This document shows positions 1 to 11,559 of a stretch of 11,559 bases of DNA, one piece after another; the stretch's first letter is position 1; every line of letters starts with the position of its first letter. Origin of the DNA: Synechococcus sp. (lineage in GTDB: Bacteria > Cyanobacteriota > Cyanobacteriia > Thermostichales > PCC-7336). Below the pieces are notes generated by a model. It saw only the letters and a program-made list of their open reading frames with translations, was not told the DNA's origin and ran no database searches. The stretch lies in NCBI GenBank assembly GCA_051439425.1, contig JBFRWD010000018.1, positions 1 through 11,559 of the forward strand, in the 5' to 3' direction. The position numbers and the translations under genes were made by a program.

Positions 1-334
1 CCCAATAAGAATGGATTGACTTGCCTCCGGTGAAGACTTGAGCTGTTGGTTCGGGCAAGCCGTGCTCCTTCCAAAGTGTGCGCTGCTCTTCAATCGGCAA
101 ATCGTCATGCTCGATGAAGATTGCTCGCCCTTGAGTAATATCGCCATCGCTGTTGCCTCCACCATTCACCACGAAGTAGACGTTGACGCCCTGTGGTTGC
201 TTTAGCTGGGCCACCTTGGATGCGGGCAGGGTGAGTTTGCGCGGCTTACCTTCACCAATCAGTCGAAGGTTTACACGATCGTCCGCGCGATACCCTACCA
301 ACTCAAGCTGCTGCACTGCTGCTGGATGGGTCAT
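1..334 (-). CDS. Phage/plasmid primase, RepB'-like AEP domain (5' part only; runs off window). Not in the ORF track
   Basis: ATG at 334 overlaps the upstream stop (ATGA), with SD GGAGGTGA at 345-338. Translation MTHPAAVQQLELVGYRADDRVNLRLIG...NVYFVVNGGGNSDGDITQGRAIFIEHDDLPIEEQRTLWKEHGLPEPTAQVFTGGKSIHSYW contains the ExD (FIEHDD) and TGGKSxHxYW motifs of RepB-type AEP primases. Confidence 0.85.
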   Translation of the reverse strand, partial: MTHPAAVQQLELVGYRADDRVNLRLIGEGKPRKLTLPASKVAQLKQPQGVNVYFVVNGGGNSDGDITQGRAIFIEHDDLPIEEQRTLWKEHGLPEPTAQVFTGGKSIHSYW

Positions 335-573
335 CTCTCACCTCCCCGCTCTACCAGCCACATCTCGAACAACTTGCGAAATTCAGCGCGGGGAATGTTG
401 TAGAGAGGAGCTAGTCTGACAAGACGGAACCGACGCCGACATAGATTTGTATCGTTGGCGATCGCTTCGAACGACTGACACAGTTGGTCGTACTCTTCCA
501 GGCGCTGGTCAAGCAGGCCTACTACGATGGAGGCACTAGTGTCGTCCCTCACCGCATTCCGTCTAATATTCAA
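331..573 (-). CDS. Hypothetical helical protein (80 aa), translationally coupled to the primase
   Basis: TTG start preceded by AGGAG; its TGA overlaps the primase ATG. Confidence 0.7.
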   Translation of the reverse strand: MNIRRNAVRDDTSASIVVGLLDQRLEEYDQLCQSFEAIANDTNLCRRRFRLVRLAPLYNIPRAEFRKLFEMWLVERGGER

Positions 574-682
574 TTGGATCTCCTGCGGTACATGCCGCCG
601 TGAGGTTTACAGACAGGTGGAAGGCCATTGGGGTCAGAGCGGTGGCACCCGCTCTTTCGCCGTTAAATGGTCTTTCATCTTG

Positions 683-712
683 AACTCCCCTAAGGCCGGG
701 GAGTTTTTATTT
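683..712 (+). terminator. Inverted repeat AACTCCCC-N7-GGGGAGTT followed by a T-rich tail on + (possible intrinsic terminator or operator)
   Basis: Perfect 8-bp stem at 683-690/698-705 followed by TTTATTT. It lies just downstream of the RHH stop, but the T tail is on the antisense strand. Confidence 0.55.
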
Positions 713-874
713 GGAATGGAGATTGTACTGAGGCAAAGTCTCGATGAACTCGCTGACGATCTCACTCTTACTGGCACCCTTCACCGCACAGTGAATTTCC
801 AGGTTCCGGAGCTGAGCTTGCGATACGCGAACATTCAACTGACACGGTTCATCCGAACTCAAACAGGCGGTCAT
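707..874 (-). CDS. Ribbon-helix-helix (CopG/Arc-like) DNA-binding protein, 55 aa. Not in the ORF track
   Basis: MTACLSSDEPCQLNVRVSQAQLRNLEIHCAVKGASKSEIVSEFIETLPQYNLHSK: alternating beta strand LNVRVS, helix A, G-x-S-K-S-E-I-V turn and helix B, the RHH pattern. Heads the primase operon. Confidence 0.8.
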   Translation of the reverse strand: MTACLSSDEPCQLNVRVSQAQLRNLEIHCAVKGASKSEIVSEFIETLPQYNLHSK

Positions 875-877
875 GTC

Positions 878-932
878 TACATAGTTTAGATAGTTACATC
901 TCTAGTGTCGCGATGGAAAATATAATTGTCAA
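878..932 (-). promoter_or_regulatory. Putative promoter/operator region of the RHH-primase operon
   Basis: TTGACA on minus at 932-927; weak -10 (GACACT) at 17-nt spacing; short direct repeats ATAGTT at 881-886 and 890-895. Confidence 0.35.
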
Positions 933-1735
933 GAGTTTCGCTCGCATGCTTTGCGAAACTGCTCGATATCTGAGTATCTGACTAGGCGATAAAGGTGAGG
1001 CTTTTGGGTGTGTGGCTTTACCCTTTGGATCCGATAGGGGAAGCGCTCGTAAGGCTTGTCGCTTCCATGCCGACTAAAATGCTGTGCAATCGCGCCCCTT
1101 TTCGGGCCGTCATCAGGATCTTTCGATTCAATGAACCTGACTATAGCTGCTAGCCTTCCGCTGTACTCTTCCTCAACAAGGGACGCTAGTTCCTCTAGAT
1201 CTTCTACTTTGTAAGTTGTGCCATCGGGCCTTCTAATGAGCACACCGTCACCAAGTCCTCCGATGATTCTGTGCCCTTGTGGGAGCGATTTGGGCAAGTC
1301 AAATGGATCGAATGTTTGGGCGTGAAGAGCACCTACACCAGTTTCTACAGCCTTTTCCACAGCAGCCTTTGAACCTTCCAATCCCCAGAGTTCAAAAACA
1401 GGCTGCGCTCTCCCCTGCTCTGCTGACTTGGCGATTTCATACGGGCCGCGCTTCCAACGATCCGTGCTTGGGAGCGGCTCGAAGCTCTTAATTGCTTCAA
1501 GATCTGAAGGACTCGGCTTTCTCCTCGGATCGTGAATATCAAACCATGCAAGGATTTCCGTGAGAGCCCCTTTATAGATTAGCTCCGACTGGGGCTGCGC
1601 CTTAATCCCAGCAGCCTTAGACAATTCTGCGATCGCTGCTTCGAGTTCAGCGATTCGCTCCTCTAATCCTTGCTTTCGGCTTGGCGGCTGCCTGTTCTCA
1701 TCCGAACCTGCGCTCTCCGGCGCTGATGCTTTTTT
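929..1735 (-). CDS. C-terminal frame of a frameshifted Xre fusion (linker + coiled coil + unknown domain + possible C-terminal winged helix)
   Basis: The 231-aa ORF (TTG 1624) lacks a well-spaced RBS, but its frame stays open upstream to 1735, reading KKASAPESAGSDENRQPPSRKQGLEERIAELEAAIAELSKAAG. It begins exactly at the A7 run inside xre. Confidence 0.7.
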   Translation of the reverse strand, partial: KKASAPESAGSDENRQPPSRKQGLEERIAELEAAIAELSKAAGIKAQPQSELIYKGALTEILAWFDIHDPRRKPSPSDLEAIKSFEPLPSTDRWKRGPYEIAKSAEQGRAQPVFELWGLEGSKAAVEKAVETGVGALHAQTFDPFDLPKSLPQGHRIIGGLGDGVLIRRPDGTTYKVEDLEELASLVEEEYSGRLAAIVRFIESKDPDDGPKRGAIAQHFSRHGSDKPYERFPYRIQRVKPHTQKPHLYRLVRYSDIEQFRKACERNS

Positions 1736-1953
1736 TCAAAGTCTTCGGCCTCCAAATCGCTGAATAGGTCAGAGACGGCACAACCCAGCGCCTCCGTCAG
1801 ACGATGTACTTTAACAATCCAATCCAGGCCAGCTTTGCCCTGTTCCCAATTTCGGATGCTCACCTCCGTAACACCAACTGCCTCAGCTAGCTCGCGCTGA
1901 GTTAGATTCGCTTCCTTTCGAAGCTCGCCAATTCTGCTCACGGGGATACCCAT
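1663..1953 (-). CDS. Xre/Cro-CI family HTH transcriptional repressor (96 aa in frame 0)
   Basis: IGELRKEANLTQRELAEAVGVTEVSIRNWEQG...LTEALGCAVSDLF is a canonical HTH_3 pattern; transcribed divergently from the promoter at 2001. Confidence 0.93.
   Translation of the reverse strand: MGIPVSRIGELRKEANLTQRELAEAVGVTEVSIRNWEQGKAGLDWIVKVHRLTEALGCAVSDLFSDLEAEDFEKKHQRRRAQVRMRTGSRQAESKD
1701..1753 (-). promoter_or_regulatory. Putative -1 programmed ribosomal frameshift signal
   Basis: Internal SD GGAGG (1753-1749), 13-nt spacer, in-frame heptamer A_AAA_AAG (1735-1729), 5-nt spacer, stem GCGC-CGGAGA-GCGC (1723-1710) whose loop CGGA can pair with downstream TTCG (1706-1703). Confidence 0.6.
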
Positions 1954-1967
1954 AGGTTTGTTGTACT

Positions 1968-2030
1968 AGAAATATATCGTAAATTTCTTTTCTTAAACTA
2001 TTGACACCACAAAGAAGTTTTCCGTACCAT
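1968..2030 (+). promoter_or_regulatory. Rightward sigma70 promoter and candidate repressor operators
   Basis: TTGACA (2001-2006), 18 nt, TACCAT (2025-2030). Inverted repeat AGAAAT-N9-ATTTCT at 1968-1988; imperfect inverted pair CGTAAATTTCTTT (1978-1990) / AAAGAAGTTTTCCG (2011-2024). Confidence 0.7.
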
Positions 2031-2079
2031 CAAGTCATCAGCCGGACGACGCTACATACCCGGCGAAAGGATTTCAAGC

Positions 2080-2526
2080 ATGCAACTCTCTACTTTCTCC
2101 CCCGAAACTACCAAGCGCGAACTGCTGGAGTTCTGCAAAGGTCGCGTTCTTGGCTACAGCAAGCACTCGAAGCAAGGCAAGGCTGCACTGCTTGCGTTCG
2201 TCAATCGTTGGATTGCTGCTGAGAGCGTTGACGAGTTGATCGATGACGTTGAGCCGTCTGTTAAATACCTGAAATCTAGGGATTTTGATCGGCAGCCTAC
2301 TGAAGCACCCGCACCGGTTGCTCCTACAGTCGCCGCCTACACCGTCTATCTCGCCACCATCGTGGTTGGAACGCTGATTCTGTGGCTGTTGGACATCCCG
2401 CTACTGGCGCTCAAGGTCTGGCGCTTTGCTCAGCAACAGTGGATCGATGTTCGGCTGCAGTTGCAGTACGTCGAGTGGCCGCAAGTTTGGCTGCCGGCGA
2501 TGCAACTCGCAATTGTCAACTGGTAG
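2080..2526 (+). CDS. Hypothetical protein with N-terminal Rho-N/HeH-like motif and C-terminal transmembrane helix
   Basis: RBS AAAGGA. TTKRELLEFCKGRVLGYSK..KQGKAALL resembles helix-extended-helix domains; hydrophobic segment VAAYTVYLATIVVGTLILWLLDIPLLAL. Confidence 0.7.
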   Translation: MQLSTFSPETTKRELLEFCKGRVLGYSKHSKQGKAALLAFVNRWIAAESVDELIDDVEPSVKYLKSRDFDRQPTEAPAPVAPTVAAYTVYLATIVVGTLILWLLDIPLLALKVWRFAQQQWIDVRLQLQYVEWPQVWLPAMQLAIVNW

Positions 2527-2587
2527 ATCGATGGGCCTGGGCACGCCTTGAAACTGTCCGATCACCCTCACACAAAGGAGCGATCAA

Positions 2588-3151
2588 ATGAATGAAATCA
2601 GCCCAAAAAGTTACACCCGCATCTTGGCCCTGGCTTGTGCCGCTCGGGACTGTTTTCCCCGCGACCGAGCACTGCAGTACGTCGAGCACCAGCTTTTGGG
2701 CGAGCACGATGCGTGGGGGATCTCAGCCGGTAGTGAGCTCCTGTGGGCTGAGCGGTTCGTAAAGGAAGCTGGACACCCCGAGTACTGGAATCTGTCAGAG
2801 GAAGAGCGGCCCACGTTTGAGGCGTTGTGCGGCGACTTCAAATCGATGATCGAGGGAGAGCACCCGATCCTTAGCCCAGGCAGGGTTGAGCTATTAGCAA
2901 ATCGAATGAGGGAGAAGGACAACGAGAACTACTTGAAGTTACTTCTCTGTGCTGGATATGCGCTCAGCCAGGAAACGTTCGAGGCAGTGAAGAGAGCGAC
3001 CGAGCGCGAGCTGGTTTTGCAGGGACACGACGAGACAACCGCGCATCACGCATCACTCTATTTCATACAGCTAGCCCGGTCCCCGAAGAAGTGGGACCTC
3101 ACAGAGGAAGAAATCGAGTGGGTTGAGGAGTTCGCTGAGTCGCTGGATTAA
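2588..3151 (+). CDS. Hypothetical protein with an internally duplicated helical domain (187 aa)
   Basis: RBS AAAGGAG; repeated motif FVKEAGHPEYWNLSEEE / FIQLARSPKKWDLTEEE. Confidence 0.8.
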   Translation: MNEISPKSYTRILALACAARDCFPRDRALQYVEHQLLGEHDAWGISAGSELLWAERFVKEAGHPEYWNLSEEERPTFEALCGDFKSMIEGEHPILSPGRVELLANRMREKDNENYLKLLLCAGYALSQETFEAVKRATERELVLQGHDETTAHHASLYFIQLARSPKKWDLTEEEIEWVEEFAESLD

Positions 3152-3258
3152 GAACGCAACGGGGCTGGCATCCCCTCACCACTGCTCCAAAGTCAAAAGC
3201 GACTACTGACCGTGCAAAGTACGTAGCCGCCTGTAAACCTAAACCAAGGTCTAGCCCA

Positions 3259-3474
3259 ATGGTACACACAACAACAGTCACAGTTCAGCAACTCATGTCA
3301 CCGGCAGAACGGGCCCAAGATGCCATCAAACTTGCCCGTAAGGCACTTAACGAAATGAGTTGGGCTGCTAGTGAAGGCGATCTAGTTGAGGCGCTAGGAC
3401 ACGAGTCAGAGGTTTCCTGTCAGCTGTCGCGATTGGAAGGAATCATCTGCAGGCTGACTTACAAACAGCAGTAG
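3259..3474 (+). CDS. Small helical hypothetical protein (71 aa)
   Basis: AAGG upstream of ATG; amphipathic helices; collinear with the operon. Confidence 0.65.
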   Translation: MVHTTTVTVQQLMSPAERAQDAIKLARKALNEMSWAASEGDLVEALGHESEVSCQLSRLEGIICRLTYKQQ

Positions 3475-3537
3475 CCTCGCAGTCCTTATCAGCGACGTTC
3501 TGTTCCTCATCACATCAAACTTTCAAGAGGTAAAGTC

Positions 3538-3747
3538 ATGACTAATAGCCAAGCAAAAACTACAGCAACTGTTCCCTTATCAGCTGAAGATACAAGGCTA
3601 CTGGCCGCAGCACTCTGCACTTTGCAAGCGGAGGGAGTAACACTGATCTTGTCGGAGGCCGAAACCGAGCAACTAACACAGAGACTCGGAATCAAGCTGA
3701 ATTTTGATGATGCGCTCGCGACTGCCGAGTCATTCGCAAAGTCGTAG
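3538..3747 (+). CDS. Small hypothetical protein (69 aa), paralog of 6761..7000
   Basis: RBS GAGG; 20/44 ungapped identities with the minus-strand ORF at 6761. Confidence 0.75.
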   Translation: MTNSQAKTTATVPLSAEDTRLLAAALCTLQAEGVTLILSEAETEQLTQRLGIKLNFDDALATAESFAKS

Positions 3748-3786
3748 CCGTTCGCTATGAATGGTTAAGGGTCTGCGCCGAACCAT

Positions 3787-3836
3787 TAACCGGCTTACGG
3801 CAATGCTTACGGTACCTCAGTCTGGGGTACCGGTTA
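3787..3836 (+). other. Stem-loop after the early operon (possible terminator or RNA structure)
   Basis: GGTACCTCAG-T-CTGGGGTACC (3811-3831, one G-U pair); alternative pairing TAACCGG (3787)/CCGGTTA (3830); GCTTACGG direct repeat. Confidence 0.4.
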
Positions 3837-4365
3837 CTCGGCCCTCTACTGTGCCAAGCTGCTTTAATTCCCCAGGATGCAGGCATTTTTCTACATCCAA
3901 GCTTCGCAATGAACTAAATTCAAAGCAGAAATCATTATCCTTTTCTCAAGAGAGTATAGGTTTACTCCTGACAAGCAATTTAGCTGTCTGGTGCCTGACA
4001 AACATAATGCAAACTGTATGTGGAACCAACCTCTCTTCAATTCCCATTACTCAATACAGCATTGAAAATTCTGTGAAATCGTAGAGTTCCCATGACTGAC
4101 TGTTCGATTAGTGAATAATACGATTTCCTCTTTCTTGAAAGTTGCGTGTATTTTCGGACAGCCCATCCGAAGACTTTGGGGAATCGTAACGTATCACTAC
4201 ACTCCTTATCCGTTTGATCTGCTTGGTCTCTTGCAATCCCTTTTGCCCATAGACTGTAGGTAAGTGGTGCCTGAGTGGACTTTTTCAGTTCTATTCTATT
4301 TCTCCGGGCAACGTGCATCTTTGTTCCATTGCTCATGAGAATGTCTTGCGATCGAGCTACTAACC

Positions 4366-4890
4366 ATGGCAACCAAGAACACGTACCAAAATACTCTCAA
4401 AAAAGATTTTGGCATCAACAAGAATATCTCTGAGGCACTGACCGAAGAGCAATGTAAAGAATTACTGGAACGTCTTCAGAACGATGACGGTACTCTGAAT
4501 CTGGTCAGGTCTTTTATCGGCAAGAACAAAGAATTGTCGAAAAATAACAGTCAATACGGACGCCAACGAGAAGACGCCAAGAGAAAGTTAGAGGCCCTGA
4601 GAATTGAGTTTGATAATTATAAAGCTGCCGATGATGGGGGTAAGGAGACAGTCCCTGTAGAGCTGACCGAAGATATGAAGGCCCTGCAGGATGAAAACAC
4701 ACAGCTGAAGCTTGAGCTGTCAGCTTTAAAAGCCAATAATGATGATTTGATGCGCGACAACAGACACTTATCCAATCTTGTAAATCTCATCAAGCTTAGA
4801 ACGACCCAAGGCATCAGAAAAATGATTTCTGGGCCAGACTCAGAGGTCAAAAGGGAGCTAGCAAAATTTCTTGAATCCACTTTAGGGTGA
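4366..4890 (+). CDS. Coiled-coil protein (174 aa), gene 1 of the three-gene HNH operon
   Basis: Long ORF with heptads (LQDENTQLKLELSALKANNDDLMRDNRHLSNLV); its stop overlaps the next start (GTGA). Confidence 0.85.
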   Translation: MATKNTYQNTLKKDFGINKNISEALTEEQCKELLERLQNDDGTLNLVRSFIGKNKELSKNNSQYGRQREDAKRKLEALRIEFDNYKAADDGGKETVPVELTEDMKALQDENTQLKLELSALKANNDDLMRDNRHLSNLVNLIKLRTTQGIRKMISGPDSEVKRELAKFLESTLG

Positions 4891-5306
4891 GGCTTGACGG
4901 CATCGTGGCAAAAGCGAAGCGCACATACAGGGGAATGAGTTATCGCGAAGTACAGCGATCAAACTCTACATCACGCTCCCAGCTCTCAATGGAGCTGCAA
5001 AAAGAACTTAAGCACAACAGTTTTAGAAACGTGGGGTGGGATAACGTCATTGCTCTACATAACGAGATTGCTCGAATGCTTCACCTAGAGAGCATGTCTC
5101 TTGAAGAGCTCTACCTAGAAGCAGACCGAGTTGGCAATAAGTATTTGTCGAAGCAAGAGATAGCCTCTCACCGCCAGGCATTAGCCATAGAAGTTGATGC
5201 CATATCCCAAACACTTGATGAACTCTACCCTGCTGGCCCGCGAGAAGAGATCGACTTTTCAAAGACAGCTAGTACTGGCCGTTCTCGCAGAAGGGCTAGA
5301 CAATAA
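4887..5306 (+). CDS. Helical hypothetical protein (139 aa), gene 2 of the three-gene HNH operon
   Basis: Coupled on both sides (GTGA, TAATG); carries SLEELYLEADRVGNKY, also present in the HNH N-terminus. Confidence 0.85.
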   Translation: MRLDGIVAKAKRTYRGMSYREVQRSNSTSRSQLSMELQKELKHNSFRNVGWDNVIALHNEIARMLHLESMSLEELYLEADRVGNKYLSKQEIASHRQALAIEVDAISQTLDELYPAGPREEIDFSKTASTGRSRRRARQ

Positions 5307-5767
5307 TGAAAAATGACATTGATTTCGAAAACTTGTCTATTCAGGAGCTGTATCAAGCAGCGTCTCGGATTGGCAATAAACGCTACCATCGTTTGACAAC
5401 AAAGGATTTGGAGGACTACCGCCAGTACGAGAAGTGGCGGTATATCTGCGGTCAGAGTGAATGTGGAACCACCAGAGAAAGCCAAGAGTGGGTCAGAAGG
5501 CATTCAAGCCACTATTGCCCTGTCTGTGACCTGGCCTATCAGCGGAGCAGGGGCAGAAGTATTGACCACAAGTTGCCCCGAGCCAAATACCCCTGGCTGT
5601 CACTAAACTTCGATAATTTCTGGGTCATCTGTAGACACTGTAACCGTGAAAAGGGAGAAATGGATTGGCTAGAATACGAACATTTCATCTTCACCGAGCG
5701 TGAGCACCTCTATCCGCTAATCAGAAGTCAGCGCCCTTCAATCCTTCTTAGAAACCTCGCGACTTAA
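5306..5767 (+). CDS. Zn-binding HNH endonuclease (153 aa), gene 3 of the operon
   Basis: CPVC...SIDHKLPRAKYP...DNFWVICRHCNREKG: CxxC/CxxC zinc knuckle with D-H...N...N catalytic pattern. Confidence 0.92.
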   Translation: MKNDIDFENLSIQELYQAASRIGNKRYHRLTTKDLEDYRQYEKWRYICGQSECGTTRESQEWVRRHSSHYCPVCDLAYQRSRGRSIDHKLPRAKYPWLSLNFDNFWVICRHCNREKGEMDWLEYEHFIFTEREHLYPLIRSQRPSILLRNLAT

Positions 5768-5807
5768 GAATTGGCCAGCACATTTATGGCTGTTCCAGAC
5801 TGCAAAT

Positions 5808-5975
5808 GAGAGTGTTGACTCTCCTTCAATTCACTTGAGATTCGTTGATGGCAGTTCGGCTTGAAATCCCAAAGCCTCTTAGCCACAGGACTAAGATAAT
5901 CCCGAGCTCCGGATTCAGGGCTTGGGGTATGTTGCGATCACTCCCCGCTTGCTTTCAGCAAGCTCAGATATCTGA
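5808..5975 (+). other. Cluster of tandem hairpins downstream of the HNH gene (structured 3' UTR, ncRNA or terminators)
   Basis: Stems at 5808-5823, 5858-5876, 5877-5896, 5899-5928 (with G-U pairs favouring +), 5947-5963 and 5964-5975. Confidence 0.35.
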
Positions 5976-5979
5976 AACC

Positions 5980-6108
5980 TCAGTGGCAATGATAAGGCTG
6001 GCTTCCTGCATGACATCCCTGATTGTTAGTTCCCCCTGAATGGGATAACGACGGGCTTGCGAAGGCAAGAAAAGCTAAGGGTAGTAAGACTATGATGATG
6101 GCTTTCAT
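5980..6108 (-). CDS. Secreted YHYH-domain-type His/Cys peptide, 42 aa. Not in the ORF track
   Basis: MKAIIIVLLPLAFLAFASPSLS|HSGGTNNQGCHAGSQPYHCH: Sec signal peptide followed by the H-S-G-G-T...G-C-H...Y-H-C-H motif of YHYH-domain proteins; GGAG upstream. Confidence 0.85.
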   Translation of the reverse strand: MKAIIIVLLPLAFLAFASPSLSHSGGTNNQGCHAGSQPYHCH

Positions 6109-6222
6109 TCCTGCAACTCCAGTAACTGCACATCACCTCTTCTCTATTCTTCTAAAGGTGCTTTCATTTAGCAATTCTGGATTGCACAGTATTAGGGATT
6201 CCCAGTATTTTACTTCTCACTA

Positions 6223-6245
6223 AACTCCCTAGATCCAAGGGAGTT
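6223..6245. promoter_or_regulatory. Inverted repeat AACTCCC-N9-GGGAGTT between divergent genes
   Basis: Same arms and spacing as 683-705. Confidence 0.45.
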
Positions 6246-6300
6246 AGATCTCTGCTGCGTTGTCAATCCATTCCTACCAGTGAAGAGCTGCGGGAATACG

Positions 6301-6651
6301 ATGACCAGCAATCTAGAACGCCAATTCGAGTCACTGTGGCTTGAACTCTATCCAAGCATCGACCTTCACTCAGAGCACCGATTCCACCCCGTCAGACGTT
6401 GGCGATTCGACTATGCCCATCTGCCCAGCAAGACCGCTATCGAGCTTGAAGGTGGCGTCTATAGCCGTGGTAGACACTCTAGAGGCAAAGGGTTCGTGAA
6501 CGACTGCGAGAAGTACCTGCACGCTGCTGCAATGGGCTGGACTGTGTGCCGGTTAGCTACTGGGATGGTGAACGCTGACAACTTGCGGCTAGTGGCTGAA
6601 GCGATTGAGATTAGGCCGCCTGTGCTGTTCGATTGTCGATGGTGTCGGTAA
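6301..6651 (+). CDS. Phage PD-(D/E)XK-superfamily (DUF559/Vsr-like) endonuclease
   Basis: EHRFHPVRRWRFDYAH...IELEGGVYSRGRH...GFVNDCEKY..A...GWTVCR is typical of this phage family. ATG 6301 is preferred over GTG 6280. Confidence 0.85.
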   Translation: MTSNLERQFESLWLELYPSIDLHSEHRFHPVRRWRFDYAHLPSKTAIELEGGVYSRGRHSRGKGFVNDCEKYLHAAAMGWTVCRLATGMVNADNLRLVAEAIEIRPPVLFDCRWCR

Positions 6652-6724
6652 TACCGATGTCATCTCTATCCGGAAATTAATCTGTGCTGTTCTGGCTGTA
6701 ACCGTTGCTAGCTCTTGCTTTGCC

Positions 6725-6754
6725 AAGGGTGTCACTAGTAGTTACACCCTTTTC
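6725..6754. terminator. Probable (bidirectional) terminator between convergent genes
   Basis: AAGGGTGT (6725-6732)/ACACCCTT (6744-6751) stem with a short T run on +; located between the stops at 6651 and 6761. Confidence 0.55.
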
Positions 6755-6760
6755 CTCAAC

Positions 6761-7000
6761 CTACTTCCCCACCAAATCCTCCAGAATCGTGACTGCATCA
6801 TCCAGTGCCATCGTGCCGCCTAGCCCGTCTGCTAGCTGTTGGCGTTGCGTGTCAGACAACTTCAGTAGCACGCCTTCAGTTTGGAGTGTGAGCAAAGCTG
6901 CCGTGGCTTCCTGACGTCTGACTAGCGCCTCGCTGCAGATCTCCTCGGTCAAGTAGTGCAGTCTGAGTCGGTCGCTCTCCTTGCGGGTGGTTGCCTTCAA
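6761..7000 (-). CDS. Small hypothetical protein, paralog of 3538..3747 (start uncertain)
   Basis: TAALLTLQTEGVLLKLSDTQRQQLADGLGGTMALDDA aligns without gaps to the 3538 protein; TTG at 7000 overlaps the upstream TGA. Confidence 0.55.
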   Translation of the reverse strand: MKATTRKESDRLRLHYLTEEICSEALVRRQEATAALLTLQTEGVLLKLSDTQRQQLADGLGGTMALDDAVTILEDLVGK

Positions 7001-8367
7001 CAGTCGTTTTCTCGCCGATACCAACTGTAGTTACAAAGTTCTTCTGGCGAGAGTTTGTCGATGTGAATCATTCCTGCTGCTTCAAAGTCAAAGTCCTGAT
7101 CGGGGAAGTGATCGACCGTGTAGTCGTTATACACAGCCCTCTCCCAAATAGTGGGGCAGGGATGAACCCATCCATTGTCAAAAGCTGTTTGAATCTCTCG
7201 ATCGCTGAAATCCGGGTTACTGCCCTTGTAAATCTCGAGGCAGATTTCCTCTGATGAGTTTTCCTCGGTTGTATAACTCACCCCACTGAAGTCTGCGTCC
7301 TGAAGGTTGGCGCCAGACAGGTATGCGTCCTGAAGGTTGGCGAAAGCCAGGTCTGCGTCTTGAAGGTTGGCGAAAGACAGGTATGCGTCCTGAAGATTGG
7401 CTTCTAACAGGTCTGCGTCTTGAAGGTTGGTTTGTGGCAGGTCTGCGTCTTGAAGGTTGACTTGTAAGAGGTTTGCGTCTTGAAGGTTGACTTGTAACAG
7501 GTATGCGTCCTGAAGGTTGGCTTGTAACAGGTTTGCGTCTTGAAGGTTGGCGAAAGACAGGTCTGAGCCGGGTAGTTGTAGATCGCGTAGGAATGCCCCC
7601 GTACCTGGGAGCGCCCTGCCTGTATCACCGTCAAGCGCAACATCTAAACCCGCAAGACTTTGAGGTGATTGTCGAATAATGCAACTTAGATATTCACCAC
7701 CTCTTCGACAAAACCAAGGAAATCGCCACGGTCGTGACACCAAAAATTCGAGCGCCTCTTTCCTCCCCCCATTCCCCGATTGCCCTGACGCGCTAGTGAT
7801 GGTCTACCAAGCAGTAAACACATCTTGTTCGTGTCGAATATCCTGATTGGCAATGAATGAGATAACGGCGATAGCAATACCCACGCTACCCACTACTTCA
7901 AAGATTTCGAAAATCGCGAGACTTTTGAACCAGCGCAATGCAGCTTCGAGTATTCTTTCAACCCTGACAAACGGCCCCGTAACTGGAGCAACCTCACTCC
8001 TTAGCTGACGCTCGGCTGTGACCCAGTAGTATTCGTCTCGCCCCTCTTGGCGACCATCTATATCCCATAGGAATTTTGCCCGTTCTGCAATCAAGCGGTG
8101 TGTATCTTCGGGCCGGTACCTATTTGGGGGAGGGGCTCCCTCTGCTAATCGCTTCTGTACTTCAGCTTCTGGTCCCCAGTATTTGCGGCCACCATATCGG
8201 TTATCTCTAACGGTGCGCTCTACCCATCGCTGGAAGGGCGTTCTCCCGTCTTTGTCTTTGAACTGCGTCAAGACTTCAGATTCGGGGTCCCAGTACTTGC
8301 AACCGCCATCGTTGTATCGATGGACTATATTGCTGCTGTCTTTCGGGTAGCGTTTGTCGGCTGACAT
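6997..8367 (-). pseudogene. DUF2934-like + TM + pentapeptide-repeat protein (456 codons) split by one in-frame TAG at 7806-7804
   Basis: ORFs 7804..8367 and 6997..7743 are in the same frame. Read-through gives FTAW*TITSASGQSGNGGRKEALEFLVSRPWRFPWFC versus paralog LAAWQTITSAAEEPGSGGRIEALEFLNSRPWRFPWFC. IAERAKFLWDIDGRQEGRDEYYWVTAERQL matches the DUF2934 pattern. Confidence 0.85.
7281..7563 (-). repeat. Coding tandem repeat, about nine 30-nt units (xNLQDAxLxx)
   Basis: Recurrent TGCGTC(C/T)TGAAGGTTG on + every 30 nt. Confidence 0.9.
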
Positions 8368-8427
8368 GGCCGGAAAGGATTACTTGCTCCTAAAGTAATT
8401 AAATCGATTAACGAGCTTCCATGTTCG

Positions 8428-8454
8428 TTTATCACATCTTGGTGCTGTGATAAA
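8428..8454. promoter_or_regulatory. Perfect inverted repeat TTTATCACA-N9-TGTGATAAA (candidate operator)
   Basis: 9-bp perfect arms in the divergent intergenic region between 8367 and 8611. Confidence 0.5.
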
Positions 8455-8610
8455 AACTCATTCAGTTCTGCTTCCACTGCAGGCCAATGATTTGGCGCGC
8501 GCCCGGGCGGACCATCAGGGAAAGAGCGTCACGTCTTCCTCAAGTGAGTTTGAAAAGCTATAGGAAAGGATGGCAACCCGAGAGCGGGCGAATCCTTTAA
8601 GGAGCTGGGT

Positions 8611-8826
8611 ATGACACGCAAGACTGACGACGAGGGCTTCCGTATCTACACGAAAGAAGCTGTGAGAGAAGACAACCCACACCTATGGTCCGTGCTTATA
8701 TTTTGCTTGTTGTTTATCGGTTCATTGTGGTTGGGCGGAACCATCTTGAATTGGGCGAACTCTGCTCTCGATAAAATCTACCAGCCTACAGCCGACGAAT
8801 TTGGGCGTATTGAGCAGCGCGAATAA
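8611..8826 (+). CDS. Small single-pass membrane protein (71 aa)
   Basis: RBS TAAGGAG; hydrophobic LWSVLIFCLLFIGSLWLGGTILNW. Confidence 0.75.
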   Translation: MTRKTDDEGFRIYTKEAVREDNPHLWSVLIFCLLFIGSLWLGGTILNWANSALDKIYQPTADEFGRIEQRE

Positions 8827-8938
8827 CCAGGAACACGCCAACAAAACGTGTTACCTGAAGTCCCCATAAGGGCAGAAGGATAGCACTACAACTCCCAGGT
8901 TCTACACAACAACAGCTCATGAACAAGGTATCCAAATC

Positions 8939-10501
8939 ATGGATCCAACCGACACCACCTCTAAGCAACAGAGAAGGCGAGTTGCCCACCAGTTATACGT
9001 TAACCGTTCGCTGAGCAGCCAACCGGGCAATCAAGATGGAGACTGGGAAAAAGCCGAATGGCTGCAGGAAAGACCGGGCAAGCTGGTGTTGTTCCGTCTG
9101 AACAGCCGATTGATATGGATGGAGAAGCGATGGATAGAACCCTGCGATCGCTTTCTCCAAAAAGCCGCATTGCTGCACATTCTGAGTCTTGTCAGCTCAA
9201 TCAGTATCCTTCTAGCCATTGGATCGTTTGTGGTAGGCCAGGACTTTCGGCATGACAAGGAAGTATTGGCGGCATGGCAGACCATCACTAGTGCAGCAGA
9301 AGAGCCGGGCAGCGGAGGGCGGATCGAGGCTCTGGAGTTTCTGAATTCAAGGCCTTGGCGTTTTCCCTGGTTTTGTAGCAGAAGGCAGGACTATGAGGAC
9401 CTGAAATGCTTCATCCGACAGCCACGACAAAGCCTTAGAAATTTAGATTTAAGCGTAGATGAGGACTCAGCTGGGAGCGCTTATCTATTTGGAGTGCGAT
9501 TGCATCATTCCGATCTTGTTGCCGCTAATCTCACTAGGGCAGACTTCAGAGAAGCAGACCTCACTGGGGCTGACCTCACTAAGGCTGACCTCACTAGGGT
9601 ATACCTCGTTAGGGCAAAGCTCATTAGGGCAAACCTTACTGGGGCTAACCTCTTTAGGGCTGACCTCACTGGGGTATACCTTACTGGGGCAAACCTTACT
9701 GGGGCATACCTCACTGGGGCATACCTTACTGAGGCAGACCTCGTTAGGGCAAAGCTCATTAGGGCATACCTCATTGGAACAGACCTCACTGGGGCTGACC
9801 TCACTGGAGCTGACCTCACTGGAGCTGGCCTTAATGAGGCAAACCTCACTGGAGCTGACCTTAATGAGGCAAACCTCATTGGGGCAAACCTCACTGGAGC
9901 TGACCTTAATAAGGCAAACCTCACTGGAGCTGACCTTAATGAGGCAAACCTCATTGGGGCAAACCTCTCAGAGGCAAACCTTAATGAGGCAAACCTCATT
10001 GGGGCAAACCTCATTGGGGCAAACCTCTCAGAGGCAAACCTTAATGAGGCAAACCTCATTGGGGCAAACCTCTCAAAAGCAAACCTCTCAGAAGCAAACC
10101 TCAATGGAACTGGGGCAAACCTCAATGGAACTGGGGCTGACCTCACTGGGGCTGACCTCAGGGGGGCTGACCTCAGGGGGGCAAACCTCACTGGGGCAAA
10201 CCTCACTGGGGCTGACTTAAGAGAGGCAAACCTCACAGGAGCAAACCTCATTGGAGCAGAAGACCTCTCAGAGATAAACCTCTATGCGGCAAAATTCAGG
10301 GGGGAATACCTCACAGAGGAATACCTCACAGAGGAATACCTCACTAGGGCAAATTTTGAAGGGACATCCCTCGCTATGGCAAATCTCACCAACATCCTTT
10401 ACAACGACCAAACCATGTGGCCCGACGGCTTCGACCCACCAGAATCCTGCAGCATTGATGACCAAAATCCGCCCATAGATTCAGCAGATTGCACCGACTA
10501 G
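8939..10501 (+). CDS. Membrane-anchored pentapeptide-repeat protein (520 aa) with DUF2934-like N-terminus
   Basis: RRRVAHQLYVNR...GNQDGDWEKAE; TM LLHILSLVSSISILLAIGSFVVG; long A(D/N)LxG tract; C-cap ILYNDQTMWPDGFDP. Confidence 0.93.
   Translation: MDPTDTTSKQQRRRVAHQLYVNRSLSSQPGNQDGDWEKAEWLQERPGKLVLFRLNSRLIWMEKRWIEPCDRFLQKAALLHILSLVSSISILLAIGSFVVGQDFRHDKEVLAAWQTITSAAEEPGSGGRIEALEFLNSRPWRFPWFCSRRQDYEDLKCFIRQPRQSLRNLDLSVDEDSAGSAYLFGVRLHHSDLVAANLTRADFREADLTGADLTKADLTRVYLVRAKLIRANLTGANLFRADLTGVYLTGANLTGAYLTGAYLTEADLVRAKLIRAYLIGTDLTGADLTGADLTGAGLNEANLTGADLNEANLIGANLTGADLNKANLTGADLNEANLIGANLSEANLNEANLIGANLIGANLSEANLNEANLIGANLSKANLSEANLNGTGANLNGTGADLTGADLRGADLRGANLTGANLTGADLREANLTGANLIGAEDLSEINLYAAKFRGEYLTEEYLTEEYLTRANFEGTSLAMANLTNILYNDQTMWPDGFDPPESCSIDDQNPPIDSADCTD
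9510..10392 (+). repeat. Coding 15-nt tandem repeat (pentapeptide A[DN]L[TNIS][GER])
   Basis: GCAAACCTCACTGGG/GCTGACCTCACTGGA-type units; it also explains the repetitive shadow ORFs at 9459 (+) and 9505 (-). Confidence 0.95.
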
Positions 10502-10537
10502 CCCCTCTGCCCGACTTCGCAATCCAACAGTTGTACT

Positions 10538-10750
10538 GGCTCTGTCACACTAACTGGCAAGTAGTCTGAGCTGGAAGAAAAAGGAGATGGATAATCGACC
10601 CGTTTCCTTATTCTCGTCACCGCTTTTCAGCCGTAGTCATCAGTTACGCAGCCTGGCTCTACGATCGCACCTGCTTGAGCTACCGGGATGTGGAGGAACT
10701 CCTGGAACGGCGAGGCATAGCAGTTAGCTGCGAGACGGCTTTGTCACACA
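10538..10750 (+). mobile_element. IS6-family remnant: left end, truncated frameshifted transposase N-terminus, second IS6-like end
   Basis: GGCTCTGTCACACTAAC at 10538; ATG 10587 then +1 frame from 10609 YSRHRFSAVVISYAAWLYDRTCLSYRDVEELLERRGIAVSCET (IS6 HRF...WLY...LSYRDVEELLxERG motif); cut by GGCTTTGTCACACA at 10737. Confidence 0.85.
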
Positions 10751-10820
10751 GCTATTTGAGACCGCGAATGCTCGGATCTGCGCTGTCGACATTAAGGCTC
10801 CAACGCTTGCAGGGACGCCG

Positions 10821-11352
10821 TTAATTCAGAACGGCGTCCTCATCCTCATCGACGAAATCCGGCACAGCCTCCACTATCTGAATCTTCAGGGGGACTTGCT
10901 CGGGTTGCGTCTTGTAGAAACCACGGTGACGGCATAGTTTCTCAAGTGCTGCTAGCTTGTCGTGAAGCTTGACTTCAACGACCCTAACCGTGCCATCTGC
11001 TGTCTCCGTCTCACGCATTGTTACGCGCTGTACGGCGATCGCACTTTCCTGGGATAGCTCACTGCTGGACTTCACAACTATGCCGTTGTTATCCCAACTC
11101 ACTACATCAGTAATCCTGGAGAAGGCTATCGCCGTTAGCTCGCTAATGATGCTGTCTATGCTGACCTTGTTTCGCTCTCTGATCGCAGCCCATTCCTTCG
11201 AAAGAGCGGCTCCAACGTTAGCATTAGCTAGCAATCTAGCTGCAGTTACTTTTGCCGAGCCTGGCGCGTAACCAGCCCTAATCGCCGCTTGAGCACCGTT
11301 GAAGTCGAGCGGAAACTCCTCAATCCTGAGTCACTCGACTTCGGCAGGCCAT
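10821..11352 (-). pseudogene. terS: Terminase small subunit with disrupted 5' end
   Basis: The frame upstream of TTG 11234 reads IEEFPLDFNGAQAAIRAGYAPGSAKVTAARLLANANV (TerS HTH signature), then ELTAIAFS...VKLHDKLAALEKL. In-frame TGA at 11333; nearest ATG (11352, MACRSRVTQD*) is out of frame. Confidence 0.8.
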
Positions 11353-11559
11353 TCACATCAACTTCGGCACCCAAATCTCAACAACTTCAGCAGGGTGCAA
11401 TCGGTCATGGCGACAAGCAATATCCCCATAGTACGAATTACGGAGCAAAGCGACGATAGTTTGATTCATGAAGTAGTCGCCTCGTGAGGCTGTTGTAGTG
11501 GGCTGGTGAGCTTGCGCATCGACTCTCCCGTCAGTGAAAGACGCAAAGAATCGTGGACA

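Follow-up and report, generated by a model that had tools for sequence, protein, structure and literature searches.

A three-gene cassette with an HNH nuclease

We analyzed a stretch of 11,559 nucleotides from Synechococcus sp. (contig JBFRWD010000018.1 of assembly GCA_051439425.1, positions 1 to 11,559), hereafter called the window, that contains three adjacent genes on the forward strand. The first gene, g1 (4366-4890, +), codes for a coiled-coil protein of 174 residues. The second, g2 (4887-5306, +), codes for a helical protein of 139 residues when read from a GTG. The third (5306-5767, +) codes for an HNH endonuclease of 153 residues with a match to PF01844. An earlier note, made from the sequence alone, described three packed open reading frames (ORFs) on the same strand with GTGA and TAATG overlaps, and the ORF list of the window agrees with that description. 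The three genes span about 1.4 kb. Our results describe a real, conserved and previously undescribed nuclease cassette with a supported assembly model: an effector with non-catalytic partners, in an unusual build around a shared plug.

The start of g2 deserves comment. Homologs of g2 start with MAxKKxKKRxFxGMSY in the family alignment, and because of this the true start is more likely to be the GTG at 4905 (MAKAKRTYRGMSY), 14 nt past the g1 stop, than the overlapping GTG at 4887. The later start agrees with the spacing seen elsewhere, where a gap of 12 nt between g1 and g2 is the commonest (41 of 78 loci). The public gene call begins g2 at an ATG at residue 17, which gives a protein of 123 residues. 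Scans of the window with Rfam and for tRNAs gave no match, and a promoter and terminator scan stayed at background level.

The HNH protein passes the PF01844 gathering score over residues 71-117 (23.4 against 21.4 bits). Residues D87, H88, N104, N113, C71, C74, C109 and C112 are invariant in a 68-row alignment (A6); the same positions are invariant in a 27-row alignment (A1) except C71, which is conserved in at least 90% of rows. We take D87-H88, N104 and N113 to be catalytic and the cysteines of the CxxC...CxxC pattern to hold zinc. Judged by these residues, the nuclease looks catalytically intact. Its model resembles the folds of Cas9-HNH, Cap5 and Gme HNH (E about 2e-3, modest scores). In the monomer model, the predicted local distance difference test (pLDDT) score is about 80 for the core and 42-57 for residues 1-50. 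The gene is present once in the genome from which the window comes, and a search for longer, fused relatives found none, which counts as weak evidence.

The g1 protein opens with a small helical domain (YGINKNIS...CKELL type), continues as a coiled coil whose length varies and ends in a conserved region. The N-terminal domain varies among the 68 rows: 27 are of the YGINKNIS type, 40 are of an EGWTKADA type and one is unclear. The C-terminal 45-47 residues or so are strongly conserved (LKKDNK.LKNIVD.IRLRLA.DTK.LLQYEDSEIRKALIRLF.WTLG) and form the best-conserved part of the protein. L128, N132 and L135 are invariant in the family alignments, and K133, K136, N137, D140, I142, L144, L154, D158, E160, R162, F169 and G174 are conserved at 90% or more. 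We found no Pfam, NCBIfam or PADLOC family for g1, only weak coiled-coil-type rows. Searches of its sequence against the PDB gave generic coiled-coil matches only, and the protein atlas holds it in unnamed cyanobacterial clusters only.

The AlphaFold2 model of g2 (mean pLDDT 81) contains helices at residues 19-30, 35-43, 51-69, 72-86 and 89-113, arranged as a three-helix N-module followed by a C-terminal hairpin. The N-module (4908-5084, +; about residues 8-66) is a basic three-helix unit with conserved residues R20, Q23, N26, K42, N48 and W51. The C-module (5076-5264, +; residues 64-126) is a helical hairpin that carries the motif discussed below and an acidic FPD..E.IDFS tail. We could assign g2 to no family of Pfam, NCBIfam or PADLOC; one Pfam row lies far under its cut-off (16.4 against 29.9 bits). 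All 58 homologs in the g2 family are unnamed or "hypothetical". The model has no Foldseek match at E <= 0.001. VIA-align gave a best Z of 5.4 to generic three-helix bundles, a result that excludes no fold, and Z of 4.0-4.4 between NblA-like hairpins and g2 residues 68-118. A search of solved structures with the g2 sequence gave only matches at chance level or to generic coiled coils.

A sequence motif is common to g2 and the HNH nuclease

The earlier note had drawn attention to a likeness between g2 residues 68-85 and HNH residues 8-25, and the 10 identities in 18 positions are as it described. It was also right that the likeness runs on to a common "RQ". The shared motif occupies residues 68-97 of g2 (5088-5177, +) and residues 7-40 of the HNH N-terminus (5324-5425, +) as delimited by BLASTP and hhalign. 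BLASTP aligned g2 residues 67-97 with HNH residues 7-40 at 13 identities in 34 positions with one 3-residue gap (E 3e-5 for the pair), and an hhalign comparison of the two family profiles paired the same stretch (probability 89%, E 2.2e-6). The motif corresponds to the first helix and the turn of the C-terminal hairpin as modeled for g2.

We searched all six-frame ORFs of at least 40 residues in the 4.8 Mb genome with hidden Markov models (HMMs) of the two segments. The HMM of the g2 C-module matched g2 and the HNH N-terminus only (E 0.022), and the HMM of the HNH N-terminus matched HNH and g2 only (E 0.15). The latter also picks up the g2 C-module in most of the g2-family and module-bearing proteins that we collected. 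The motif is kept in homologs, with conservation visible in both family alignments: the consensus is sLEELFLEADRIGNKYqT..EI in g2 and L.ELF.LADK.GNKRYH.LT..DFEDY in HNH. Within the 68-row HNH alignment, L15, G23, Y27, L30 and T31 are invariant and L12, F16 and A19 are conserved at 90% or more. These comparisons make homology of the motif in g2 and HNH well supported at the sequence level.

We considered the idea that the motif is a DNA-binding helix-extension-helix of the SAP/HeH/Rho_N type, which it resembles. This candidate was dropped because neither motif segment nor whole g2 had such a Pfam match, and because the g2 model shows the motif as the leading helix of a long hairpin. The Pfam search had a nominal limit of E <= 10, and HMMER filters drop most matches above about 0.1.

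The g2 hairpin is predicted to dock on the conserved C-terminus of g1

We predicted the structure of a complex of two copies of g1, one HNH and one g2, with g2 as the scored partner and 68-row alignments matched by locus. The interaction prediction score from aligned errors (ipSAE) was 0.72 (0.72, 0.72 and 0.65 in separate runs), and the best of three controls reached 0.02. Swapping g1 for an unrelated protein reduced the score to 0.00. The mark that we used for this score is reached by 116 of 157 solved complexes and by 2 of 215 mismatched pairs, a calibration that is only rough here because our predictions use custom alignments and more than two chains. The runs share at least 64% of their contacts, and the pLDDT of the partner is at least 67. 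No solved relatives of g1 or g2 were found whose structures, if memorized by the predictor, could account for the passing score.

The predicted docking platform on g1 (4750-4884, +; residues 129-173) draws on both copies of the dimer, with residues 131-146 and 162-173 of copy 1 and residues 129-155 of copy 2 at the interface. On g2, the contacts are made by residues 65, 69-73, 75-76, 78-79, 82-84, 86-87, 91 and 95 and further along by 98-99, 102-103, 105-106, 109-110 and 113. Seven of the 13 positions that are identical between g2 and HNH are g1 contacts (S71, L75, Y76, A79, G83, N84 and L87), and two more contact positions are conservative replacements (L72/I12 and V82/I22). Only four HNH residues touch g2 in the complex model. 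The model thus supports binding of the g2 motif hairpin to the conserved C-terminal platform of g1, in line with the docking role toward the coiled-coil protein that had earlier been suggested for the shared helix. Because the HNH hairpin is homologous to that of g2, we infer that the HNH N-terminus may dock on the same platform.

The triplet is a conserved accessory unit of cyanobacteria

Relatives of the HNH are encoded in 208 stretches from species-representative genomes, and we analyzed the best 80 of these loci. The records of 79 of the 80 name cyanobacteria. At E <= 1e-3 we counted at least 205 members of the HNH family, and all organism names given for the HNH and g2 families are cyanobacterial. 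The three genes travel as a unit, a point on which the earlier note had made its reading depend: of the 80 loci, 79 contain g2 and 78 contain g1, and the order g1-g2-HNH and the common strand are the same in 78 of 78. The gap between g1 and g2 lies between -16 and +15 nt in 73 of the 78 complete loci. For the three genes, the matrices of pairwise identity correlate with one another (r 0.63-0.83), and none of 500 permutations gave values as high.

To survey the phylum, we examined an even sample of 400 other cyanobacterial genomes. Members of the HNH family occur in 13 of them, once each, with a patchy distribution within genera (1 of 5, 2 of 9 and 1 of 8 genomes). The g2 module is found in exactly the same 13 genomes, adjoining HNH, and was not found outside the triplet in any of the 400. 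Two of the 80 loci hold decayed copies. Both g1 and g2 are absent from one (L007, 3395-3844); in the other (L072, 7723-8462), g1 is lost and g2 is cut down to its hairpin C-module. The HNH frame and catalytic residues are intact in each, and both may be cases of recent decay. It is well supported that the cassette is a conserved, accessory, single-copy unit across many cyanobacterial families.

The cassette occupies variable genomic sites

The surroundings of the triplet differ widely among the 80 loci. When flanking genes were clustered, the next most frequent neighbor occurred in just 20 of the loci. The gene recA lies upstream in 20 of 80, with xseA and xseB downstream in 18 each; all come from one related genome group. 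In 40 genomes of a Nostoc-like genus, the triplet sits between recA and xseA in 13 and elsewhere in 3, and the remaining 24 have no DNA match to it at E <= 1e-30. Two close relatives show the difference directly. The flanks of genomes G464 and G429 are 91% identical at the DNA level, and the triplet and little else is missing from this site in G464: its flanks match to 14 nt before g1 and resume 215 nt past the HNH stop, with 131 nt between. A PhdYeFM-ParE pair fills the recA-xseA slot in place of the triplet in a third genome (G449), and other genomes of the genus carry unrelated inserts of 2.2-2.9 kb there. The cassette is a presence/absence element in a variable recA-xseA slot (seen at L130, 1589-2147, in G464 and G449 and in others), and its adjacency to recA therefore need not be functional.

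Small toxin-antitoxin genes are found among the 127 nearest ORFs (PemK 1, ParE 2, PhdYeFM 2, PIN 2), as are other accessory genes (XisI 5, XisH 1, Uma2 4, NB-ARC/NACHT 4, GmrSD 1). A second recurrent context was observed as well. A VIT/VWA protein is encoded upstream of the triplet in loci L024, L031, L069 and L081, and an NB-ARC/NACHT STAND NTPase is encoded downstream in L024, L031, L069, L081 and L133.

The window itself contains phage-like genes: an N-terminal piece of a primase/helicase (2-334, -), a cI-like helix-turn-helix gene (1663-1953, -) and a small terminase gene (10821-11234, -; Terminase_2, 1.6e-13). A DNA comparison with 30 relatives, of which three belong to the same genus, gave no match for positions 1-6900. 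On account of these genes and the unmatched left part, the triplet may sit in a mobile region on this contig. The earlier description of the locus as the cargo zone of a mobile element applies to this contig at most and is not general, as none of the phage-like genes seen here is repeated at the 80 other loci. Beyond the triplet itself, generic pentapeptide repeats are the only proteins of the window that turn up there.

The cassette differs from Septu

The earlier note recognized no named system in this architecture, and our scan of PADLOC-DB 2.0.0 bears this out: g1 and g2 match no model (0 PADLOC families at E <= 0.01). The best library hits of the HNH core are of the PtuB type (PDC-M01B, 1.4e-11; PtuB, 1.2e-8) and cover residues 41-126 only. 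An excerpt of a published report describes PDC-M01 as duplicating Septu calls (PMC11811056).

Septu PtuA-PtuB, including the PtuAB of type I-A retrons, likewise pairs a small PtuB-like HNH effector with a non-catalytic assembling partner. The partners in our cassette, a coiled coil of about 175 residues and a helical protein of 139 residues, differ from PtuA in that neither is an ATPase, and the cassette HNH has an extra N-terminal hairpin, putatively for docking. We found no PtuA ATPase adjoining the triplet, no ATPase domain in g1 or g2 with Pfam and no flanking gene that recurs in more than 20 of the 80 loci. The cassette is not Septu, because the ATPase partner is absent and the HNH lies far under the cut-off of the PtuB-type family TIGR02646. 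In the papers searched, which were those with open-access full text, neither the cassette nor the motif turned up.

The hairpin is a wider module with a link to phage proteins

Among 1.84 billion representative proteins, 119 matched a g2-family profile at E <= 1e-3, and in these matches the N-module and the hairpin can be found apart from each other. Many proteins of 90-180 residues have the N-module by itself or joined to a different C-terminus. The hairpin appears as a module of about 60 residues in large proteins (profile positions about 63-130, E 6e-16 to 1e-4). These include two Phage_portal_3 and two Portal_Mu proteins, in which the module is always C-terminal to the portal domain, a 2420-residue protein with SNF2 and N6-methylase domains, and several large proteins without a Pfam domain. 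The module consensus is sLEeLFxEADRIGNKYQT...FPD..E.IDYS, and it is reproduced nearly letter for letter in the large proteins (for example, sLEDLFIETERIGNKYQT).

The module is also present in three contigs of IMG/VR (L082, L083 and L084), which match the module HMM at 7e-17 to 3e-13. The carriers are a 989-residue Portal_Mu protein followed by ParB_N and Mu F genes, a 1686-residue protein, and a 121-residue ORF that adjoins a Mu F gene. A g1-like platform was found in none of 44 viral loci, including the three with the module. We found no HNH family member in IMG/VR, where the best matches to the HNH are 34% identical and confined to the core. Neither g2 nor the portal-extension piece has a match in 50,697 GenBank phage records.

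Iyer, Burroughs, Anand, de Souza and Aravind (2017, PMC5512222) predict that portal and MuF fusions are loaded into the virion and injected; the hairpin module is not mentioned in excerpts of that paper. The cassette has the hairpin of about 60 residues in g2 in common with these portal- and MuF-fused "polyvalent" proteins. They differ in that the fused proteins are large and virion-associated, whereas g2 and HNH are small and chromosomal. We also observed a cysteine-rich knuckle (CxxGxxCGxxCIxxxxxC) shortly upstream of the hairpin module in four portal-fusion and related proteins (P0214, P0216, P0217 and P0224); it occurs twice in P0214.

A proposed scaffolded nuclease complex and its alternatives

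In our proposal, the triplet is an accessory cassette of cyanobacteria, self-contained and horizontally mobile, whose products form a scaffolded HNH nuclease complex. We give this reading an even chance of being correct. In the structural model, g1 would form a coiled-coil dimer whose conserved last 45 residues or so provide a docking platform. g2 and HNH would each bring a homologous helical hairpin as a plug. The g2 plug is predicted to fit the g1 platform, and the HNH hairpin, by homology, would plug into it likewise. The basic three-helix N-module of g2 probably recognizes nucleic acid or a trigger, and HNH would do the cutting. We suppose that the nuclease becomes active or targeted only once it is assembled on the scaffold. 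As its distribution and context suggest, the role of the cassette is most likely that of a conflict system, which might be an anti-phage or anti-mobile-element system or an addiction-type module. A defense or toxin-antitoxin role is plausible.

Several observations weigh against this proposal. The g1 dimer was an input assumption of the complex prediction and not a result of it, and the HNH N-terminus is placed on the platform by homology. The N-module of g2 has no clear fold match and nothing usable in the protein atlas, and no member of the HNH or g2 families has an experimental annotation. The TIGR02646 score of the HNH is E 0.026 and 14.6 bits against a cut-off of 52.15. The nearest neighbors of the triplet are mostly housekeeping genes of many kinds. 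Proximity to defense islands, which the earlier note had raised, was not borne out: PADLOC-hit proteins (E <= 1e-15, with three very long near proteins left out) make up 18 of 147 proteins within 3 kb and 10 of 150 at a distance of at least 4.5 kb (Fisher p 0.11). Near proteins average 358 residues against 242 for the far ones, generic ATPases or kinases account for many of the hits, and the loci are related to one another. There is no clear defense-island signal, given the p value, the greater length of the near proteins and the fact that the loci are not independent.

A toxin-antitoxin-like arrangement would assign the parts differently. HNH would be the toxin, and g2 would either inhibit it competitively on the g1 platform or mimic its interface until a trigger such as infection displaces g2 and frees the nuclease to assemble or act. 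Having the same docking motif on g2 and HNH would allow competition for one site, the cassette has a variable slot in common with the PhdYeFM-ParE pair, and small toxin-antitoxin genes are frequent neighbors. Colicin-type HNH DNases are encoded with an immunity protein, and type II toxin-antitoxin genes come as pairs. The cassette resembles these systems in setting an HNH nuclease gene beside the gene of a small helical protein in a tight operon, and it has the same genomic slot as toxin-antitoxin pairs. It differs from them in its third, scaffold gene, and the confidently predicted partner of g2 is g1, not the nuclease. The g2 hairpin contacts both g1 copies in the model. The decayed loci also speak against this arrangement. 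An intact HNH persists without g1 in 2 of 80 loci, where g2 is missing or reduced to its C-module. HNH alone is therefore tolerated, or inactive without its scaffold, and this argues against g1 and g2 as an indispensable antitoxin. These two loci are better explained by a nuclease that is inactive without its scaffold than by a toxin held in check by g1 and g2. We consider the toxin-antitoxin-like arrangement unlikely.

The phage link of the hairpin suggests another possibility. Because some portal extensions and giant proteins carry the hairpin of g2 and HNH, the g1 platform could bind an entering or newly made phage protein. The platform might sense or capture phage portal or giant proteins through the same plug, which would displace g2 or bring HNH to phage DNA. 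Alternatively, the cassette might be a domesticated piece of phage head assembly. If capture occurs, HNH would be brought to portal-bound or entering phage DNA, a form of immunity by mimicry of the docking module. We judge either version quite unlikely.

We think it very unlikely that HNH acts as a homing-type, free-standing endonuclease by which the three genes spread to empty sites with no benefit to the host. The cassette is patchy and differs in presence between close relatives such as G464 and G429, it lies at a different site in 3 of 40 genomes of one genus, and its flanks vary widely among the 80 loci, all of which would suit such a selfish element. Against this, every genome with a match has one copy (14 of 14), and the 80 loci show no recurrent integrase or transposase next to the triplet. 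The insertion sites differ between lineages, which is ill-suited to site-specific homing, and the two non-catalytic genes stay intact and co-evolve with HNH.

The chance that the triplet is a host DNA repair or recombination factor that acts with RecA and exonuclease VII is remote. The recA, xseA and xseB neighbors described above are what favors this idea, but the linkage comes from one related genome group. Within that group, the recA-xseA interval is variable, holding a toxin-antitoxin pair or other inserts in some genomes and no triplet in G464, and the cassette is missing from 387 of the 400 sampled genomes.

HNH proteins of the HK97 gp74 type assist terminase at cos sites during phage packaging. 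The cassette is like this arrangement in having a minimal HNH whose activity is probably confined to a multi-protein assembly, and its docking module links to portal proteins. It differs in that the 8 kb around it holds neither a terminase nor a portal gene in the 80 loci, where the neighbor census found a single virion-type (baseplate) gene, beside L064, and in that the HNH family was not found in the phage collections searched. With no terminase or portal gene nearby, the cassette is not a phage HNH-terminase arrangement. That it serves as a packaging helper of a phage or satellite is scarcely credible: the small terminase, primase/helicase piece and cI-like repressor of the window and the portal-protein extensions would fit, but the small terminase recurs in 0 of 80 loci, the HNH family and g2 are unmatched in IMG/VR and the GenBank phage records, respectively, and the window terminase lies 5 kb off on the opposite strand, beyond two pentapeptide-repeat genes.

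The scaffolded nuclease complex that we favor is of interest for several reasons. Experimental work on phage defense and toxin-antitoxin systems is sparse in cyanobacteria, and both non-catalytic proteins, g1 and g2, fall outside any described family. The assembly model is concrete and testable, with a coiled-coil platform, two clients and one common plug, and the parts of the cassette are small enough for structural and genetic study. The module of about 60 residues ties chromosomal host proteins to phage portal extensions. If this link is functional, it would show either delivery of a nuclease to phage DNA or loading of phage cargo at the portal. Even if the cassette serves mere addiction or selfish spread, its shared-plug design would be a clear case of modular assembly.

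Other features of the window

A 123-residue ORF just past HNH (6280-6651, +) matches phrog_503 at 1.1e-28 and a DUF559-type model weakly (E 0.013); it is beside the triplet in 0 of 80 other loci. Two small ORFs (3538-3747, +, and 6761-7024, -) encode paralogous proteins with 47% identity over 43 residues (E 2e-9). They flank the triplet and the phrog_503-like ORF in inverted orientation, and no inverted repeat was found around them at the DNA level.

The region of the small terminase (10525-11559) has two paralogs of about 80% DNA identity on other contigs of the same genome. A piece of about 200 nt (10525-10729) recurs on three more contigs, and the last 236 nt of the window are 99% identical to the middle of another contig. 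The genome therefore contains several related elements or repeats. The pentapeptide-repeat proteins encoded at 6997-7743 (-) and 8939-10501 (+) have a similar N-terminal part (RPWRFPWFC). Their genes have in common a 144-nt stretch in opposite orientation with 70% identity, and a paralog at 75-78% is present on another contig.

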